A stretch of 20,765 nucleotides of DNA, taken from IMG/VR virus record IMGVR_UViG_2703718852_000001; one strand, given 5' to 3'. A program made the translations under genes and the position numbers. Origin of the DNA: a virus (taxonomy: Duplodnaviria > Heunggongvirae > Uroviricota > Caudoviricetes). Position 1 is the first letter of the stretch; each line of letters opens with the position of its first letter. The notes below the pieces were generated by a model. It searched no databases, was not told the DNA's origin, and worked only from the letters and a program-made list of their open reading frames with translations. Below are positions 20-20,765 of this stretch, piece by piece.

Positions 20-1315
20 TTAATTTTTCATTGCTTCGTTATGGGGCATGGTTGGGGCAAACTCGCTTAACTGTGTATTTAACAAAGCTACCTGTGCATT
101 ATTGTTTTCAGACATCCATTTTCCGTATACCTGAAATACCATTTGCGCATCTGCATGGCCCATCTGGTTTGCTATAAATGCCGGGTTAGCACCAGCTGTC
201 AGCGACCAGCAGGCATAAGTATGTCTCGACTGATATGATTTTCGATGGCGGAGTCCGGCACGTTTTATCGCTGCGTCCCACATCTGCCTTATTGAGTCAA
301 CGGTAAAATGGTCACCATAATTTTTTACTCTCGCTGACACTTCAGGTTGAAAAACAAAGGTGCATTTTTGTTTTTCTGTTCTGCCATACTCTCTGAGGTG
401 AACATCAATGATATGCTCTTTGCTCAGTCTCGTTAATGTCATCTGACTCCGGAGAGCGTCGATTGCTGGCTTAATAAGATGAATGACCCGATTGGTTCCC
501 GCCTGTGTTTTTGGTACCGTGAAACGGTCTTTTGCTAAATTTCTCCTGATCATCATTGTTCCATTTTTCAGATCTATGTCCTCCCATCCAAGTGCACACA
601 GCTCACCAGGGCGAACTCCAGTATAAACAGAAACACACCATAAATTTTTTGCTTGCTGATTTCTGCACGCATCGATAAGACGGATAAATTCTTCCCGCGA
701 AAGAGGATCCGGAATGGTTCTTGATTCCTTTAATGGCGAGATCCCCTTAAACGGATTATCTGCCAGGTAACCGTTATCAACACCAAACTGGAACACGGCG
801 TTAAGATTTGTCATGTAATTATTTACAGTTACAGCCGATCTCCCTGGTTGTGTAACAATATAGTTACTTTTGGGGATCTGGTATCCAGTCAGTAACTCTT
901 TACGAACCTCCAGTAATTTTTCTTTATTAATCGATGAGGCAAGATTTTTTTCACCGATTATGCTCAGGATATTTTTGATGACGGCACGGTATGTGTTGAG
1001 TGATGTTTTGGCGACTTCAGTTTCTTTCAGTGCCAGAAATTTTTCAGCCAGTTCTTTTATGGTTAAATCTTGTCGGGCCTCACCAAATTTTTCCAGATTG
1101 CGTGAGGAGGGAAACTGTTTTGCATAGTCGAAAACACCAGTTTTTATTGCGTAACAAACAGAGGAGCGTAGTTCACCTGCAACGCGCCTGTTTTTTGCTG
1201 TGTCAGGAACCCCCAGATTTTCCCTGACTCTTACGTCTTTATAAACAAACCAGATACGTAATTTCCCTCCATGGTTTTCCACGCCTGTCGGATATTTCAT
1301 TTCAACTTCTCTCAT
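20..1315 (-). CDS. Phage tyrosine integrase (site-specific recombinase), 431 aa
   Basis: ORF track 20..1315 minus. C-terminal tyrosine-recombinase signature readable in the translation (..SRHTYACW.., ..QMGHAD.., ..VYGKW..) and an N-terminal arm-type domain (KYPTGVENHGGKLRIWF). Sits at the prophage edge, transcribed outward, as lambda int does. Alternative start at the second Met (coordinate 1300). Confidence 0.85.
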   Translation of the reverse strand: MREVEMKYPTGVENHGGKLRIWFVYKDVRVRENLGVPDTAKNRRVAGELRSSVCYAIKTGVFDYAKQFPSSRNLEKFGEARQDLTIKELAEKFLALKETEVAKTSLNTYRAVIKNILSIIGEKNLASSINKEKLLEVRKELLTGYQIPKSNYIVTQPGRSAVTVNNYMTNLNAVFQFGVDNGYLADNPFKGISPLKESRTIPDPLSREEFIRLIDACRNQQAKNLWCVSVYTGVRPGELCALGWEDIDLKNGTMMIRRNLAKDRFTVPKTQAGTNRVIHLIKPAIDALRSQMTLTRLSKEHIIDVHLREYGRTEKQKCTFVFQPEVSARVKNYGDHFTVDSIRQMWDAAIKRAGLRHRKSYQSRHTYACWSLTAGANPAFIANQMGHADAQMVFQVYGKWMSENNNAQVALLNTQLSEFAPTMPHNEAMKN

Positions 1316-1334
1316 TAGTTAGTGTGGCTTTTAG

Positions 1335-1619
1335 TCAAGTAAGATGACGTCTTGGTCTCGCTGATGCCTGGCGCTCAATCCAGCGATCAATTTCTTCCAG
1401 GTTGTAAAAGCATGGACTGTTATCCCATGGCATACCGTCATGAGCGACATGCTTATATTCCCTTCCTTCCATAAACGATTTTTCCCGGGCCTTTTTTAAC
1501 GTACCTTTTTTTATTCCTTTCAGCGCAATTAACTGCTCTTCGGATACGCGGTGGAAGTGCTGCTGATGTCGAATCCTAGCGTGATGACTATGAAGCGGGA
1601 AAAACTCCGGTCGAAGCAT
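1335..1619 (-). CDS. Putative excisionase-like small protein (xis position), 94 aa or shorter
   Basis: ORF ends 19 nt upstream of the int start on the same strand, the slot xis occupies in lambdoid phages. Contains ..EGREYKHV.., reminiscent of the lambda Xis DGREY wing. Function is inferred; the true start may be an internal Met. Confidence 0.35.
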   Translation of the reverse strand: MLRPEFFPLHSHHARIRHQQHFHRVSEEQLIALKGIKKGTLKKAREKSFMEGREYKHVAHDGMPWDNSPCFYNLEEIDRWIERQASARPRRHLT

Positions 1620-1669
1620 ATTGTGATGAGTGGGGCGATGAATGAGCGAGATTAATTATCAGGAAGGGC

Positions 1670-1929
1670 ATGAAACGGCGGGGCAAGCAAAACCAGTGGC
1701 ATGGCGATATCGCTACGTGAAAAAAGGCGTTACGGACTTTCAGGGGAAGTAGTGGTCTGGTGACTGGAAATATGTACCGAAAAAAGAGGATTGTAACGAC
1801 AGGCCGAACTATCAAATTCAGGCCTTATTCACTGCCTCACCAGTCCCAGTTACATCAGAAGAACTGGTTAAAGCTGTGCACTTTTATGAACAACTAAAAC
1901 GCGAAAATCCACCAACATCCGGCAACTAG
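1670..1929 (+). pseudogene. Decayed gene remnant (serial frameshifts, no usable start for the longest frame)
   Basis: Three consecutive short open frames: ATG 1670 to TGA 1720, ATG 1701 to TGA 1763, and a start-less 58-codon frame 1753..1929 ending ..EELVKAVHFYEQLKRENPPTSGN. Consistent with a frameshifted pseudogene. Confidence 0.2.
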
Positions 1930-2183
1930 ATTAATGGATTAACTATGTCGGTTAAACGACCAGCCAACTGAAAAAGCGGAAACCTGATTACAGGTTGCCA
2001 GATAAGGCAATGAGCTACCTGGCGCGGAACGGACTGATAAGTATGGGGAATGTTTTACGATGAACCTTTAGACTAAAGAGTTTGTAACGCTATGTAAGTG
2101 ATTTTTTCTGGTTTAGATATTTATATGTCCGGCCAAATTGAGGTGTGTTTAAATGTAATTGCACATTGATTGTAGGAGGAATA

Positions 2184-2363
2184 ATGAAAAACGCATTGCA
2201 GTTTTTGTTTGTTGCGTTCTGGTTGTTCGCATCATGTATGCCCATCATCTTCACAGCAAGGTATATGGAAAAAGTTGATGTTTTGATATTAATATTTGGA
2301 TATATAAATGCCCTTTTTTTAGGGGTGTTCATGGCGGTCATGTGCATTGAATACTGGCGGTAA
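2184..2363 (+). CDS. Small hydrophobic (predicted two-helix membrane) protein, 59 aa
   Basis: Internal ATG at 2184 of track ORF 2145..2363, preceded by AGGAGG at 2174-2179. Translation MKNALQFLFVAFWLFASCMPIIFTARYMEKVDVLILIFGYINALFLGVFMAVMCIEYWR has two hydrophobic stretches. Lies in an AT-rich segment. Confidence 0.45.
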   Translation: MKNALQFLFVAFWLFASCMPIIFTARYMEKVDVLILIFGYINALFLGVFMAVMCIEYWR

Positions 2364-2559
2364 ATACAGCGAACTCCATTGGTTTAGTTGGATATTTACT
2401 GTGCTGGACAAAAACGGTTTGCGGGGAAATCTTAGTTAAGTAGAATGACTGCGGGTGCTTGAGGCTATCTGCCTCGGGCATGGACACCAACGGCAGATAG
2501 AGAAAAGCCCCAGTTAACATTACGCGTCCTGCAAGACGCTTAACATTAATCTGAGGCCA

Positions 2560-4260
2560 ATTTCATGCTAGACACATGTAGGTTAGCCTCTTACGTGCCG
2601 AAAGGCACGGAGAAGCAGGCTATTGTTAACACCAAGCTGTAATGTCCCCTTTGAACCATTCTAAAATGTCCCCAGACAATTCTCTGGGGGATTTTTCATG
2701 ATCAAAGAGACTGTTACGATGAGTCATAAGGAACTCCACCGACTTCAGATTATTCAGGAACAAGCTGCGGCACGCATTGGCATTTCTATTCGGCAGGTTA
2801 AACGTCTGGTGCAACGGTATAGAAATGAAGGGCCTTCTGGTCTGGTTTCCCACCGACGTGGAAAGCGTCCTAATAATTCCTTTTCTACTGAATTCAGAGC
2901 AACAGTAATTTCACTCCTCAAAGGCCGTTACGCTGATTTTGGACCTACGTTTGCGTGCGAAAAATTGCGCGAGATACACGGTTTATCTTTATCCGTTGAA
3001 ACTCTCAGAAAGTGGATGATAGAAGAGGGGTTATGGCGTGAACGCCGTCGTAAAATTGCCCGTATATATCAACGCCGCATGCGACGACCATCTTACGGTG
3101 AACTGATCCAGATTGATGGCTCACCTCATGACTGGTTTGAAAATCGAGGCCCCAGATGTACACTGATCGTTTTCATTGATGATGCCACCAGTGCGTTGAT
3201 GGCGTTGCGTTTTGTGCCTGCTGAAACAACCCGGGCTTACATGGAAACCCTCCGGGGTTACCTTAATGATCATGGCGTACCGCTCGCTCTCTACTCTGAT
3301 AGACACAGTATATTCAGGGTAAATAACCCAGAGCGGGAAGGTGAGCTGACCCAGTTCACTCGTGCGATAAAGACACTGGGCATCGAGCCAATCCATGCCA
3401 ACAGCCCGCAGGCAAAAGGGCGGGTAGAGCGCGCCAATCAGACACTACAGGACAGGCTGGTCAAAGAAATGCGGCTTCAGAATATCAGTGATATTGAAAC
3501 AGCAAATGCATGGTTGCCGACCTTTATTGAAGCCTATAACAACCGGTTCGCTACGTCGCCTCGTACTACTGATAATGCTCATCTTGATGTGCACCATTCT
3601 GAAGAGGAACTGGGTTATATCTTCAGCCTACAGGCGAAGCGCGTTCTGTCTAAAAATCTCACTTTCCAGTACAAAAGCAGTGCGTTTCAGGTACGCAGTG
3701 AGGGCCGGGGATATCGACTTAGGCATTCGGTTGTTACTGTATGCGAGAACTTTGACGGTGAAATTAACGTTCTGTATGACGGGAAAGCGCTGGGCTGGGA
3801 AAAGTATGTTGATGGCCCGGAGCCTATACCACTGGATGATGAAAAGAGTGTCCATGAACGAGTGGATAATGCCCGTATTGATTTACGCTCAAAATACTAT
3901 GTTAAACCTAAAGCTGACCATCCCTGGCTTACGCGCCGAACGCAAAGTCATCAGCAAGTTAAGCCCCCGAAGTTACCTAAAAAGAAGCCTGATCCCGATA
4001 AAAAAGATTGAAACCAAGATCGATTCGGTTGAGTGCATATCCATTCATAGGGTAGATTCTTAAGTCGCGTTTCTGGTGTTCATTTTCGGGTGGTTTGTTA
4101 CTTGTTTTACCGGGGATATGCCAGAAACGCGCTGAGTCAGTCTGGGCGGTGCGCGTAATGAGGCGTTATGGTAAATAGCCTATGCTAATGTCCGCTAAGA
4201 GCAAGAAGCGGAAGTTGGCAGTTTTGTGGACTGTCCCCACAAAAGTGACTACAGAAATAG
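2560..4260 (+). mobile_element. Insertion sequence carrying the IS481-like transposase; ends not resolved
   Basis: Single transposase ORF with flanking non-coding DNA; I could not identify convincing terminal inverted repeats or a target duplication by eye. Bounds are approximate. Confidence 0.3.
2698..4011 (+). CDS. DDE transposase, IS481-like (retroviral-integrase-type catalytic core), 437 aa
   Basis: Track ORF 2698..4011. N-terminal HTH region (..ISIRQVKRLVQRYRNEGPSGLVSHRRGKRP..) followed by DDE-type motifs (..QIDGSPHDW.., ..LYSDRHSIF.., ..ANSPQAKGRVERANQTL..), as in IS481/IS3-type transposases. Confidence 0.85.
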   Translation: MIKETVTMSHKELHRLQIIQEQAAARIGISIRQVKRLVQRYRNEGPSGLVSHRRGKRPNNSFSTEFRATVISLLKGRYADFGPTFACEKLREIHGLSLSVETLRKWMIEEGLWRERRRKIARIYQRRMRRPSYGELIQIDGSPHDWFENRGPRCTLIVFIDDATSALMALRFVPAETTRAYMETLRGYLNDHGVPLALYSDRHSIFRVNNPEREGELTQFTRAIKTLGIEPIHANSPQAKGRVERANQTLQDRLVKEMRLQNISDIETANAWLPTFIEAYNNRFATSPRTTDNAHLDVHHSEEELGYIFSLQAKRVLSKNLTFQYKSSAFQVRSEGRGYRLRHSVVTVCENFDGEINVLYDGKALGWEKYVDGPEPIPLDDEKSVHERVDNARIDLRSKYYVKPKADHPWLTRRTQSHQQVKPPKLPKKKPDPDKKD

Positions 4261-9063: not shown

Positions 9064-9117
9064 AAAAACTCTCCATGTGTGATCCGATGGGGCCTGAAAT
9101 TAAAGCTTTAATATAGC

Positions 9118-14559: not shown

Positions 14560-14818
14560 GCACGTTGTGACATGCAGATGATAATTATTATCATTTTGCG
14601 GGTCCTTTCCGGCGATCCGACAGGTTACGGGGCGGCGACCTCGCGGGTTTTCGCTATTTATGAAAATTTTCCGGTTTAAGGCATTTCCGTTCTTCTTCGT
14701 CGTAACTTAATGTTTTTATTTAAAATACCCCCTGAAAAGAAAGGAAACGACAGGTGCTGAAAACGAGCTTTTGGGCCTCTGTCGTTTCCTTTCTCTGTTT
14801 TTGGCCGTGGAATGAACA

Positions 14819-14820: not shown

Positions 14821-15969
<1,149 letters not shown>

Positions 15970-15979
15970 GTTATACGAG

Positions 15980-16882
15980 GTGTATAACAACGGATATCCA
16001 ACAGCGTATGGAAATATCATTCACCTGAAAGGGATGACAGCCGTTGGCGAAGGTGAGTTACTCATCGGCTGGAGTGGTACAAGCGGTGCTCATGCTCCGG
16101 CATTTATTCGTTCACGACGGGATACGACCGACGCAAACTGGTCGCCGTGGGCGCAGCTTTACACCTCGGCTCATCCTCCTGCAGAGTTTTATCCAGTCGG
16201 TGCACCAATCCCGTGGCCATCAGATACCGTTCCGTCTGGTTATGCCCTGATGCAGGGGCAGACTTTTGACAAATCTGCATACCCGAAACTTGCAGTTGCT
16301 TATCCGTCAGGCGTGATCCCTGATATGCGTGGCTGGACGATTAAGGGCAAGCCCGCCAGTGGTCGGGCCGTATTATCTCAGGAACAGGACGGCATTAAAT
16401 CGCACACCCACAGCGCCAGCGCATCCAGTACGGATTTGGGGACGAAAACCACATCGTCGTTTGATTACGGAACCAAATCCACGAATAACACCGGGGCGCA
16501 TACCCATAGTATTAGCGGGACCGCAAATAGTGCCGGTGCGCACCAACACAAGAGTTCCGGTGCATTTGGTGGCACGAACACGAGCATTTTCCCTAATGGT
16601 TATACCGCGATTTCAAATCTAAGCGCGGGGATTATGAGCACAACAAGCGGTAGTGGCCAGACTCGTAATGCAGGGAAGACATCATCAGATGGTGCTCATA
16701 CCCACTCGCTGTCCGGCACTGCTGCAAGCGCAGGCGCACATGCACATACTGTCGGTATTGGTGCTCATACGCACTCCGTTGCGATTGGTTCACATGGACA
16801 CACCATCACCGTTAACGCTGCTGGTAACGCGGAAAACACCGTCAAAAACATCGCATTTAACTATATTGTGAGGCTTGCATAA
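15980..16882 (+). CDS. stfQ: Side tail fibre protein, C-terminal portion (GTG start), 300 aa
   Basis: Track ORF 15980..16882. ..[37 protein letters not shown]...GAHTHS repeats...[24 protein letters not shown] matches the lambda Stf C-terminus as I remember it. In-frame TAG at 15917 limits upstream extension. Confidence 0.8.
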
Positions 16883-17457
16883 TGGCATTCAGAATGAGTG
16901 AACAACCACGGACCATAAAAATTTATAATCTGCTGGCCGGAACTAATGAATTTATTGGTGAAGGTGATGCATATATTCCGCCTCATACAGGTCTGCCAGC
17001 AAACAGTACCGATATTGCACCGCCAGATATTCCGGCTGGCTTCGTGGCTGTTTTCAACAGTGATGAGTCATCGTGGCATCTCGTTGAAGATCATCGGGGT
17101 AAAACGGTTTATGACGTGGCTTCCGGCGACGCGTTATTTATTTCTGAACTCGGTCCGTTACCGGAAAATGTTACCTGGTTATCGCCGGAAGGGGAGTTTC
17201 AGAAGTGGAACGGCACAGCCTGGGTGAAGGATACGGAAGCAGAAAAACTGTTCCGGATCCGGGAGGCGGAAGAAACAAAAAACAACCTGATGCAGGTAGC
17301 CAGTGAGCATATTGCGCCGCTTCAGGATGCTGCAGATCTGGAAATTGCAACGGAGGAAGAAATCTCGTTGCTGGAAGCATGGAAAAAGTATCGGGTATTG
17401 CTGAACCGTGTTGATACGTCAACTGCACAGGATATTGAATGGCCAGCACTGCCGTAG
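16882..17457 (+). CDS. tfaQ: Tail fibre assembly protein Tfa, 191 aa
   Basis: Track ORF 16882..17457; ATGA overlap with the stf stop; Tfa-like sequence ([28 protein letters not shown]...). Confidence 0.9.
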
Positions 17458-17554
17458 GGTAAAACATATAAATTCTATAATTAGATGTATCTTTCCATTT
17501 ACGGCAAGGAAGGGGGCTTGGAAGACGTAAAGCATCTCACACCGAGATTATTTT

Positions 17555-18145
17555 TTATATGTCAGGTGTCTGAAGTTTTGCTTTGGCTCTTAAAATGGTT
17601 TGCCGCGAGGTTTTGAATTCCCGGGCAATGGCACTTATACTTACACCTGACTTAATTCGTTCGAATACCGCCTGTTTCTGTTCTTCATTTAACACAGGTG
17701 GTCGACCAAAACGTTTCCCTGCGCCGCGGGCTCTTACTATCCCGGAATGAGTGCGTTCAAGTAAAAGGTCTCGTTCAAATTCAGCGACTGCTGAAATTAC
17801 TTGCATCATCATTTTTCCTGTTGGACTGGTCAGGTCAATGCCCCCCAATGCTAAGCAATGCACTCTGATACCTGTTTCGGTCAGTTGTTCCACTGTTTTC
17901 CTGATATCCATTGCATTACAACCAAGGCGATCCAGTTTTGTCACAATCAATTGATCACCACATTTCAGGCGAGCAAGCAACCGGTTAAAACCAGGACGCT
18001 CACTGGTTGCTGCTGAGCCGCTAATGTGTTCTTCGATTATTTGCTGAGGTTTGATTTTAAAACCTGCACTTTCGATTTCCCGGCGTTGATTTTCGGTGGT
18101 CTGATCCAGCGTTGATATCCGACAGTAAGCAAAAATTTGAGACAT
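17555..18145 (-). CDS. pinQ: Serine recombinase, Pin/Gin/Hin-family DNA invertase, 196 aa
   Basis: Track ORF 17555..18145 minus. N-terminal catalytic region (..[16 protein letters not shown].., active-site Ser context) and C-terminal HTH, typical of the Hin/Gin/Pin invertases. Confidence 0.9.
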
Positions 18146-18461
18146 AGTGAGACTCTATACGAAATTGGTGTTCATATCATAATGCATCTCAGAAAATAAT
18201 TATGATTATTTTTGTGCATATTTGTATGTACACGTTCGAAAATAAACGAATGCGTATGCAACCCCGTAATTTTGGTGAGACCCAAAATCGATTTTGTGAA
18301 AAATGGCTTTAACTCGGTTTGTTTTTCGAGTTCCGGGCGGACTCAAGGAAGAAGAATAGTGTTGCGTGTTATTTTAACCAGATTTCAAGTTGTTTGGTCG
18401 TGGAAAAGTGGAGCAAAATGTTGTTAAAGTGGAAAAATGATAAAAAAGTAAGTTTATTATA

Positions 18462-18695
18462 TTACATTTTACCATTTAAATTTTGGTTGTCTTTAAGAAC
18501 TGATATCGCTGTTTGTAATAATTCTTTGTTATCCAGCCATGATTTTTTCTTTATGTTTCCTTCAATGTAATCAAGCAATGTTCTGGTATTGATAGGTCTT
18601 CCCTGTTTTGCTACTTCCACTACAGCATCCCCTAGGATAATTCTTACTTCAGGAAGCTGCGCAGGGAACCACTTTAGGGTGTCTTTTGATTTCAT
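18462..18695 (-). CDS. ydfK: YdfK, small cold-shock-associated prophage protein, 77 aa
   Basis: Internal ATG (18695) of track ORF 18462..18728, preceded by AAGGAA SD; translation MKSKDTLKWFPAQLPEVRIILGDAVVEVAKQGRPINTRTLLDYIEGNIKKKSWLDNKELLQTAISVLKDNQNLNGKM. Confidence 0.75.
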   Translation of the reverse strand: MKSKDTLKWFPAQLPEVRIILGDAVVEVAKQGRPINTRTLLDYIEGNIKKKSWLDNKELLQTAISVLKDNQNLNGKM

Positions 18696-19481
18696 GAAGA
18701 TATTCCTTAAAATATTATTGATTTTCATTGCGATATTGTATGTCTGATTCAGGATATGTTGACTTATACATCGGTTTTGTCTGGGTTATTGGATATGCCA
18801 ATCCCTAATTTTATTAGGGCATGACTAAAAATGCTGAATATGATAAGGAGAGATGTGATTATCAGTATGCTGTTCATATAGCCTCGAATTAGTAATGTGT
18901 TATATATGATATAGTTGACAATTTTTATCTTGGGTGTTCTTAAAGTTCGTAGATAAACATTGTCGTTTCAGGTATACAGGAATGCTAACAGGTGGCAGCA
19001 AAAATCAGGCGGTTTATGGCGCAAGCTGAAGCGGCAACTGCAAACTATCTTATGCAGAGACTCTACACGGATTGGGTTTAAAAGTATACATAGATAACAG
19101 TTTTTATCTGAAAAAGAAAAATATCAAGGTGATATAGCCTATATGCCTTTGATGCGGAGGAATGAATGTGATGGGAGTGATGTATCTGAATAGTTGAAAA
19201 ACCGCAGACACGCCTTATGCAAGAACGTGCTGCGATTGGCTGGTAAATTTTTCGATAGTGTGAGTATTGAATGATTTCCAGCCGTTCTTGATTTTACGCA
19301 TAAATCCATGAAAAAACTACTTATCTGTTGGGGAGTTTTTTTGGGGCATATATGGGACAGAAATAGGCCCCAGATAGACACTGAGATCGAACTTAGGATG
19401 CTTTTTAAAAAAATGCAACTATCTGAAAAAACCTAGAAAACGCCAAGGAAACCACAGGATGGGAAAAAACACCTGTGAATT

Positions 19482-20765
19482 ATGGATTTCCAGTTATATT
19501 CGCTCGGCGCAGCGTTAGTGTTTCATGAAATATTTTTTCCTGAATCATCAACGGCAATGGCGTTAATTCTGGCAATGGGAACCTACGGTGCAGGTTATGT
19601 GGCGCGTATTGTCGGAGCATTTATTTTCGGCAAAATGGGCGACAGAATAGGGCGTAAAAAAGTGCTCTTTATTACCATCACCATGATGGGGATCTGTACC
19701 ACCTTAATTGGTGTGTTACCGACCTATGCACAGATTGGTGTTTTTGCACCCATCTTGCTGGTGACGTTGCGTATTATTCAGGGGTTGGGTGCAGGTGCGG
19801 AAATTTCCGGTGCCGGTACGATGCTGGCGGAATATGCGCCAAAAGGTAAGCGCGGAATTATCTCCTCATTTGTGGCTATGGGAACTAACTGCGGAACCTT
19901 GAGCGCAACGGCAATCTGGGCCTTTATGTTCTTCATTCTCAGTAAAGAGGAACTGCTGGCGTGGGGATGGCGTATACCGTTCCTGGCGAGTGTTGTCGTG
20001 ATGGTCTTTGCTATCTGGTTGCGTATGAATCTGAAAGAAAGCCCGGTCTTTGAGAAGGTTAACGACAGTAACCAACCGACAGCAAAACCTGCACCTGCTG
20101 GTAGCATGTTCCAGAGCAAATCCTTCTGGCTGGCAACAGGGCTGCGTTTTGGTCAGGCGGGTAACTCCGGGTTAATTCAGACTTTCCTTGCAGGCTATTT
20201 AGTGCAGACGTTATTGTTTAACAAAGCAATTCCAACAGATGCATTGATGATCAGTTCGATTCTCGGCTTTATGACCATTCCGTTCCTTGGTTGGTTATCC
20301 GATAAAATTGGTCGCCGGATCCCGTATATTATTATGAATACCTCCGCGATTGTGCTGGCATGGCCAATGCTTTCTATCATTGTAGATAAAAGCTATGCCC
20401 CGAGCACCATTATGGTTGCACTGATTGTGATTCATAACTGTGCGGTGCTGGGATTATTTGCTCTGGAAAACATTACCATGGCAGAAATGTTCGGCTGTAA
20501 AAACCGCTTTACCCGGATGGCTATTTCTAAAGAAATTGGTGGTCTTATCGCTTCCGGTTTTGGTCCTATCCTGGCGGGTATTTTCTGCACCATGACGGAA
20601 TCCTGGTATCCGATCGCCATTATGATCATGGCATATTCAGTGATTGGTTTAATCTCTGCGCTGAAAATGCCAGAGGTGAAAGACCGTGATTTAAGTGCGC
20701 TGGAAGACGCTGCGGAAGATCAACCGCGTGTTGTAAGAGCTGCGCAACCTTCCAGAAGTCTGTAA
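19482..20765 (+). CDS. ydfJ: MFS transporter (metabolite:H+ symporter type), N-terminally truncated host gene, 427 aa
   Basis: Track ORF 19482..20765, 12-TM-like hydrophobic pattern with MFS motifs (..GKMGDRIGRKK.., ..WGWRIPFL.., ..LSDKIGRR..). Begins within what would be TM1 of homologs such as KgtP/ProP; in-frame TGA three codons upstream (19476-19478). Confidence 0.9.
   Translation: MDFQLYSLGAALVFHEIFFPESSTAMALILAMGTYGAGYVARIVGAFIFGKMGDRIGRKKVLFITITMMGICTTLIGVLPTYAQIGVFAPILLVTLRIIQGLGAGAEISGAGTMLAEYAPKGKRGIISSFVAMGTNCGTLSATAIWAFMFFILSKEELLAWGWRIPFLASVVVMVFAIWLRMNLKESPVFEKVNDSNQPTAKPAPAGSMFQSKSFWLATGLRFGQAGNSGLIQTFLAGYLVQTLLFNKAIPTDALMISSILGFMTIPFLGWLSDKIGRRIPYIIMNTSAIVLAWPMLSIIVDKSYAPSTIMVALIVIHNCAVLGLFALENITMAEMFGCKNRFTRMAISKEIGGLIASGFGPILAGIFCTMTESWYPIAIMIMAYSVIGLISALKMPEVKDRDLSALEDAAEDQPRVVRAAQPSRSL

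Follow-up and report, generated by a model that had tools for sequence, protein, structure and literature searches.

The pinQ gene of the cryptic prophage Qin is probably a captured Tn3-type resolvase gene whose res region has decayed

Two groups of small serine recombinases are the closest described systems to the pin genes of lambdoid prophages: the Din invertases (Hin, Gin of Mu, Cin of P1 and PinE of e14) and the TnpR resolvases of Tn3-family transposons and plasmids. An enhancer lies inside the invertase gene in Din systems, and the resolvase represses its own promoter in Tn3-type elements. We analyzed the pinQ gene in a stretch of viral DNA of 20,765 nucleotides (IMG/VR record IMGVR_UViG_2703718852_000001; hereafter, the window), and the whole window was found to be the complete cryptic prophage Qin from a non-K-12 E. 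coli. Kirigo et al. (NAR 2025, PMC12529663) reported that overproduction of PinQ drives inversion of the 1,797-bp P segment of e14, which yields the chimeric protein StfE2 and blocks T2 adsorption. They also described PinR of the Rac prophage, which is 99% identical to PinQ and belongs to the same stf-tfa-pin-ynaE/ydfK module (PMC12529663). Trans action of PinQ has thus been in print since 2025, and pinQ and pinR are already annotated K-12 genes. Here, we found that pinQ is probably a tnpR-like gene of the Tn3-family/plasmid resolvase type, captured together with a res region that has since decayed, and not a tail-fibre invertase gene that had lost its invertible segment.

In ancestry, PinQ fell into a clade formed by the resolvases of Tn3-family elements and plasmids, outside the Hin/Gin/Cin/Pin invertases, as judged from its sequence identities, the divergent tnpA genes beside its relatives and its recognition helix. 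The Pfam search revealed a Resolvase domain (PF00239, E=2.5e-36) and an HTH_7 domain (PF02796, E=2e-11). The identity of PinQ was 38-39% to PinE and about 36-40% to Gin, which outdid gamma-delta resolvase by only a small margin, whereas ten plasmid, transposon and phage relatives showed identities of 57-83%. Using tblastn, we found PinQ homologues on 1,798 plasmids, chiefly from Klebsiella, Escherichia and Enterobacter and mostly with identities of 60-84%; the enterobacterial plasmid recombinases compared with PinQ were 72-84% identical, and the protein database search gave the same picture. A scan of viral contigs recovered only copies with 98-100% identity and no intermediate relatives, which were supplied by the plasmid collection. 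NCBIfam gave sub-threshold matches only, for PinQ and PinE alike, and did not discriminate between them.

The surroundings of the plasmid homologues pointed in the same direction. In Klebsiella pneumoniae pS130-1 (L108), a gene with 78% identity lies 159 bp from a divergent, intact gene for a 994-aa Tn3-family transposase, which is the classical tnpA-res-tnpR arrangement. Additionally, tblastn with this transposase located a tnpA damaged by frameshift or truncation immediately upstream of the PinQ homologue in three more plasmids and one metagenomic contig (L110, L112, L114 and L018). A tblastn search for remnants of a Tn3-family tnpA found none in the window and none in the tail/pin locus (L003) of the lambdoid phage 2H10. 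In the alignment, the recognition helix of the C-terminal helix-turn-helix (HTH) domain was TSRQTILR in PinQ and TTRQTILR in the Tn3-family/plasmid relatives, in contrast to VSTLYK in the Din invertases.

We compared the region upstream of pinQ with the corresponding regions of these relatives. In seven plasmid relatives, half-sites with the consensus TGT(C/A)CGAAA occupied fixed places in the 125 bp before the ATG, scoring 11-16 bits each; they formed a 26-bp palindromic site I at -115/-99, a site II at -75/-53 and a site III at (-34)/-22. More distant homologues, including those of Erwinia phage LS-2018a and Mycoavidus, revealed the same three-subsite architecture, with a half-site variant of their own. 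Some 113 of the 125 bp before the pinQ ATG (18146-18258) were colinear with the res regions of the relatives and followed the same succession of sites, III, II and I. The upstream regions of Qin and an IncI plasmid homologue (L107) were 66% identical over 127 columns, and a blastn alignment of the two covered site III together with the -10 region (E=5e-12, 83% identity). Only one of the six res-like half-sites upstream of pinQ, ATTTCGTATA in site III (18156-18165 region), was well preserved and scored like those of the relatives (12.3 bits at -20), whereas the others scored about -1.5 to 5.7 bits (Table 1). In the 2H10 variant of the site I relic, TCCGAA was kept and the score was 5.6 bits. 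The promoter hexamers detected by consensus scan within this relic are listed for both pinQ and pinR as a constitutive RpoD promoter by genomic SELEX (PMC3946193). No resolvase-type dyad site and no second res were found in the window or in the complete 2H10 genome, and neither of the half-site words TGTCCGAAA and TTTCGGACA led to anything relevant in a full-text literature search.

Two further observations were made at the outer edge of this region. Qin and pS30-1, an IncI plasmid, remained homologous (L107 3745-3880 versus window 18263-18345) for approximately 80 bp past res, through non-coding DNA containing GAA(C/T)TCG(A/G)AAAA(C/T)AAACC..GTTAA, which suggests that the captured module was larger than res and the gene. 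A viral record in which homology to Qin ends at 18255, inside the site I relic (L067; IMG/VR UViG 2617270939_000001), was considered as a site-specific junction and ruled out; the sequence beyond this point is unrelated, and the foreign sequence upstream of pin is probably the end of an insertion sequence.

Of the catalytic residues of the resolvases (Y6, R8, S10, D36, R68 and R71 in Tn3 numbering), PinQ has the equivalents Y7, R9, S11 and R73, with E39 in place of D36 throughout the clade. The position of the catalytic Arg71, however, is occupied by Cys76: PinQ has the motif LDRLGC, while every plasmid or transposon relative has the arginine of LDRLGR, as do Gin, PinE and gamma-delta resolvase. 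Cys76 was present in all 88 phage-lineage copies checked, and a cysteine was also found at this position in a lineage with 84% protein identity (P0009/L116), which indicates that the substitution is old and fixed. The R71A and R71K mutations of Tn3 resolvase abolish resolution in vivo and lower cleavage approximately 1000-fold (PMC2794168). By analogy, the catalytic competence of PinQ is doubtful; the 2025 paper on PinQ does not mention Cys76 (PMC12529663). Among members of the Cys lineage, dN/dS was 0.31-0.38, compared with 0.15 when they were set against the Arg lineage, a pattern consistent with relaxed yet not absent constraint. In the protein database, we also observed rare chimeras (P0004-P0007; one or two members each, from read-level assemblies) that combined a plasmid-type N-terminus bearing Arg76 with a phage-type C-terminus; these may be natural recombinants or assembly artefacts.

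To describe any inversion system at this locus, a Din dyad matrix was built from the pixL and pixR sites recovered from e14 of K-12 and the gixL and gixR sites recovered from Mu, which served as positive controls, together with the hixL sequence; true sites scored 28-33 bits. When all 26-mers of the prophage were scored, no Din-type site was found, and the best value was 12.8 bits. Matches to AAACCNNGGTTT-like sequences numbered 11 in the window, against 12.8 expected by chance, and a search of the window and of 2H10 for inverted repeats that could bound an stf/tfa/pin segment yielded nothing beyond short pairs of low complementarity, as expected by chance. Neither a Din-type nor a resolvase-type dyad site was present in the 46 kb of the complete 2H10 genome.

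PinQ with 98-100% identity was found by tblastn in viable lambdoid phages, including 2H10, Kati, mEp460, Tritos and others. The 2H10 and Kati loci, which we examined, contain J, lom, a full-length stf and tfa, followed by the convergent pin and a ydfK-like gene, with a single stf/tfa set. Among 5,426 complete E. coli genomes surveyed, the pin-ydfK spacer was intact in 2,783 of the 2,801 that have it, and the tfa-pin junction was colinear in 2,661. Approximately 1,000 further genomes shared only the 3' end of tfa, with homology stopping near 17445-17448, which places the boundary of the module at the tfa stop codon. We saw no sign of alternative orientations at stf-tfa-pin among the surveyed genomes, and Kirigo et al. 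found inversions only in e14 (PMC12529663). The original prediction, which had been made from the DNA sequence of the window, described pin as an orphan gene without an evident invertible segment, accompanied by one stf/tfa set, convergent with tfa and with its 5' end towards ydfK. The gene coordinates, the single stf fragment and tfa of the window, the colinear junctions and the lack of a partner site in the prophage and 2H10 agree with this description. Its further proposal that the invertible segment has probably been lost did not hold: intact phages have the same single-set layout, and hence nothing was lost specifically in Qin, while the sequence comparison places PinQ among the descendants of resolvases.

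The same prediction had pointed to a perfect 14-bp palindrome, CAAAATCGATTTTG, about 140 bp from the pin start as a crossover-like site with half-sites resembling the hix/gix core. The palindrome is exactly as described, 137 nt before the ATG, and is present once in the window and once in the 2H10 genome. Its resemblance to recombination sites disappeared on alignment with gix, hix and pix, the check proposed with the prediction and an outcome named there as refuting: the palindrome-centred 26-mer scored -1.4 bits on the gix/pix/hix dyad matrix (rank 115 of 20,740 positions), and the conserved inner CC/GG of Din sites was missing. As PinQ-clade half-sites, the arms scored at most 2 bits, and in the 26-bp geometry the values were -22 to -26 bits, so that the score was at noise level for both site classes. 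The actual crossover relic would be res site I, with the palindrome 25 bp beyond it. On these scores, the palindrome is judged not to be a recombination site of the Din or resolvase class.

Perfect 14-bp palindromes were no more frequent in the window than expected from dinucleotide-preserving shuffles (2 versus 1.5; P>=2 = 0.45), the other one being ATTAAAGCTTTAAT at 9099-9112, although a palindrome of this kind within the AT-rich, 316-bp ydfK-pinQ spacer was mildly unusual (P=0.036). The 12-bp core AAAATCGATTTT was invariant in the 83 phage-lineage copies readable here (83/83), while the outer pair varied as C..G, A..T, A..G and A..A. We considered the symmetric change from C..G to A..T, seen in the 2H10/O145 variant, as a mark of selection for the dyad, and dropped it in view of the A..G and A..A intermediates among 88 copies. 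The palindrome was also compared by eye with a copy of site I lacking the central 4 bp (15/22 matches) and was rejected as such, since it has the wrong half-site geometry and its arms score poorly. The spacer revealed no RNA structure (folding z=-0.5), and an Rfam search over 17400-19500 gave only weak sub-threshold matches; the palindrome belongs to neither a structured RNA nor a terminator. Most probably, it arose by chance in AT-rich DNA; at most, it would be a putative binding site for some factor.

The history that we favour for pinQ is as follows. A module made up of a resolvase gene and its res region would have been captured by an ancestor of this lambdoid phage lineage and inserted behind tfa; res sites II and I (crossover) would then have eroded, while the site III half-site beside the ATG stayed a good predicted binding site. 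PinQ, which keeps Ser11 and the recognition helix of its clade and has Cys76 for the Arg71 equivalent, would no longer be able to recombine in cis, because neither a crossover site nor a partner site is present. By analogy with Tn3-type resolvases, it would most likely still bind site III and autoregulate its own promoter. Several points weigh against this account. Thousands of genomes carry the open reading frame (ORF) in intact form, and its dN/dS is below 1, which together indicate that some function is under selection. Autoregulation through site III is taken from analogy; the specificity of the PinQ HTH domain is deduced from the conserved recognition helix, and the effect of the Arg-to-Cys change is extrapolated from Tn3 resolvase R71A and R71K. 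Finally, P-segment inversion measured by qPCR reached 88% with PinQ overproduction versus 26-30% in controls, and deletion of pinQ lowered both inversion and T2 survival, results that argue for PinQ catalysis on pix sites (PMC12529663).

These last results form the core of the published explanation, according to which PinQ acts in trans as a catalytically active invertase on the e14 pix sites and produces an StfE2 chimera that blocks T2 adsorption; we regard it as possible, though somewhat doubtful. In its favour, the inverted P segment was present in T2 survivors, and PinQ had no effect in strains with stfP, stfE or e14 deleted (PMC12529663). The original prediction had arrived at trans action independently. 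Against it, a matrix of PinQ-clade sites, a sequence-based prediction of specificity, gave -15.3 bits for pixL and -12.4 bits for pixR, with pix and gix overall at -10 to -15 bits, and PinQ keeps the recognition helix of its clade. Cys76 lies at the residue whose mutation abolishes recombination by Tn3 resolvase (PMC2794168). An inversion level of 88% also exceeds the approximately 50:50 equilibrium that we would expect of a simple invertase. Moreover, the K-12-type P segment (>=95% identity) was found in at most ~380 records versus ~2,800 genomes with the pinQ module; being far rarer, this target cannot explain the general retention of pinQ. Since the enhancer of Din systems lies inside the invertase gene, the behaviour of a pinE deletion is ambiguous in our reading. 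That deletion locks the P segment although pinQ and pinR are present, and neither a mutant of the catalytic serine nor an in vitro assay appears in the paper, which also leaves the enhancer undiscussed (PMC12529663). Direct catalysis by PinQ on the P segment thus sits uneasily with its sequence features. A tentative suggestion, likewise somewhat doubtful, is that the PinQ/PinR lineage, which approximately one in two complete genomes of E. coli carries, is a Tn3-type resolvase that has been catalytically crippled, exapted and kept as a DNA-binding protein, such as an autoregulator or a recombinase modulator, in which case PinE or another Din invertase would catalyse P inversion and PinQ would act indirectly.

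Other explanations for the locus were weighed against the capture of a resolvase module. That PinQ is a Hin/Gin/Cin/Pin-type invertase whose adjacent tail-fibre segment was deleted, leaving the palindrome as the surviving crossover site, is very improbable. The position of pinQ beside stf/tfa, as in Mu and e14, would suit this idea, as would the agreement by eye of one half of the palindrome region with a pix/hix half-site at 8/12 positions and the finding that the palindrome-centred 26-mer of 2H10 had the top Din-matrix score of that genome; however, this score (11.5 bits) is the background maximum, the palindrome in the window lies far below real sites and has no partner, and intact phages with the same layout have no second tail-fibre set. 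In addition, tfa is adjoined by the 3' end of pinQ and not by its 5' end, the identity to Din invertases (36-39%) is low versus up to 84% for resolvase-type relatives, and no junction breakpoints were found in ~2,780 genomes. A purely regulatory role for the palindrome, as a cis-regulatory operator bound by a dimeric regulator of the host or of a phage and with no part in recombination, is unlikely in our judgement. The transcription start of pinQ would follow approximately 90 bp downstream, which puts the palindrome at a plausible distance to the SELEX-mapped promoter, and the invariant core and its unusual occurrence within the spacer speak for it. The whole spacer, however, is 89-100% conserved, so the invariance of a 12-bp core says little; the symmetric outer change dissolves given the intermediates, the motif occurs just once each in the prophage and in 2H10 and is missing at the homologous position of the plasmid relative L107, and no candidate binding protein was found. 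The idea that PinQ and its upstream region are a working resolvase/res pair resolving phage or prophage multimers appears equally remote as that of a deleted tail-fibre segment. The relatives do have the classical tnpA-res-tnpR arrangement and the module is kept in viable phages, but five of the six half-sites, including both arms of site I, are degraded and PinQ has Cys76. Lambdoid phages package from concatemers, and we know of no need for a resolvase in them.

The capture of a Tn3-type resolvase would correct the ancestry of this locus: it would be a transposon-type resolvase with a decayed res and not a degenerate tail-fibre inversion system. Two of its features, a DNA-binding domain and site class unlike pix and the replacement of the catalytic Arg by Cys, are new facts that bear on the published mechanism, and they make the claim of recombinase-activated phage defence cheaply testable. 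They also caution that the name "Pin" is no guide to function.

The window extends from an intact integrase ORF (20-1315) to a truncated ydfJ (19482-20765), and its part from 15927 to 20765 is 99.9% identical to Qin of MG1655. The gene order around pinQ is an stf fragment (+), tfaQ (+), pinQ (-), ydfK (-) and ynfT, and the coordinates of the features are collected in Table 1.

Table 1. Positions of the pinQ module, its predicted sites and the adjoining genes in the Qin window.
Feature	Position	Strand	Basis and remarks
pinQ	17555-18145	-	196-aa small serine recombinase; ORF list, Pfam, RefSeq annotation pinQ; 99.9% identical to the K-12 Qin region
PinQ nucleophilic Ser11 (codon TCA)	18113-18115	-	equals Ser10 of gamma-delta/Tn3 resolvase; alignments to Gin and gamma-delta; column invariant among aligned relatives
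PinQ Cys76 (codon TGT)	17918-17920	-	position of catalytic Arg71 of Tn3/gamma-delta resolvase; alignments
PinQ C-terminal HTH domain, aa 147-190	17576-17707	-	HTH_7 match; recognition helix TSRQTILR
Predicted res site III homologue TGAACACCAATTTCGTATA	18156-18174	-	colinear alignment, blastn, half-site matrix scan
Predicted res site II relic TGCACAAAAATAATCATAATTATTTTCTGAGA	18187-18218	-	CG core gone in both arms; 3.0 and 3.3 bits versus 11-16 in relatives
Predicted res site I (crossover) positional homologue CATACGCATTCGTTTATTTTCGAACG	18233-18258	-	eroded; about 0-1 bits versus 33-39 in relatives
Sigma-70 promoter of pinQ, TGTACA-16-AATAAT	18205-18232	-	consensus scan; inside the res relic
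Perfect 14-bp palindrome CAAAATCGATTTTG	18283-18296	.	outside the res relic; 25 bp beyond the site I relic
Spacer between convergent tfaQ and pinQ, 97 bp	17458-17554	.	pin module bounded on the left by the tfa stop codon
tfaQ, sole tail-fibre assembly gene	16882-17457	+	Pfam Caudo_TAP E=3.6e-43; annotation
stfQ', 3' side tail-fibre fragment	15980-16882	+	Collar and Phage_fiber domains; annotated partial; upstream fusion to J' and nohQ' fragments
ydfK, facing the pinQ 5' end	18462-18695	-	annotation

Some differences from K-12 and minor features were present elsewhere in the window. The integrase ORF of this Qin (20-1315, -) encodes an intact 431-aa tyrosine integrase, in contrast to K-12 intQ, which is an IS2-disrupted pseudogene. 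An excisionase-like ORF (DUF1233) was found at 1335-1619 (-) and a 437-aa transposase-like ORF with HTH and rve domains at 2698-4011 (+), and the region 1180-3826 had no counterpart in the alignment to MG1655 Qin. The segment 15330-15926, which lies between nohQ' and stfQ' and is a C-terminal fragment resembling lambda J, was not present in MG1655 Qin, which indicates a further deletion of approximately 600 bp at the nohA/stfQ junction in K-12. Just upstream of the nohQ' fragment, a 26-nt inverted repeat (14738-14794; 85% complementary, 5-nt loop) probably forms a terminator-like hairpin. In the spacer between ynfT and ydfJ', the region 19097-19234 (+) weakly matched the CssrB sRNA of Shigella in Rfam, below the threshold (25 bits versus a gathering score of 76, E=0.016).

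Compared with the described systems, PinQ shares with the TnpR resolvases of Tn3-family elements and plasmids 72-84% identity, the recognition helix and an upstream, promoter-bearing homologue of res with colinear sites I, II and III. Several of these relatives have a divergent Tn3-family tnpA, whereas PinQ has no tnpA or remnant of it in the window; PinQ also differs in its location in the b-region of lambdoid phages beside tfa, in the erosion of sites I and II and in the Cys at the Arg71 equivalent. With the Din invertases, PinQ has in common the small serine recombinase fold, the nucleophilic serine, the HTH domain and the tail-fibre neighbourhood, and the 26-bp dyad geometry of the crossover site (12+2+12) is common to Din sites and those of PinQ's relatives. 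In contrast to the Din invertases, the identity is low, the recognition helix is another one, and gix/hix/pix-type sites, an inverted pair and alternative Sv/tfa genes are absent; the gene orientation is opposite, with the 3' end of pinQ towards tfa, and no inversions were seen among the genomes. PinR of the Rac prophage lies in a different prophage and at a different chromosomal position, outside this window.

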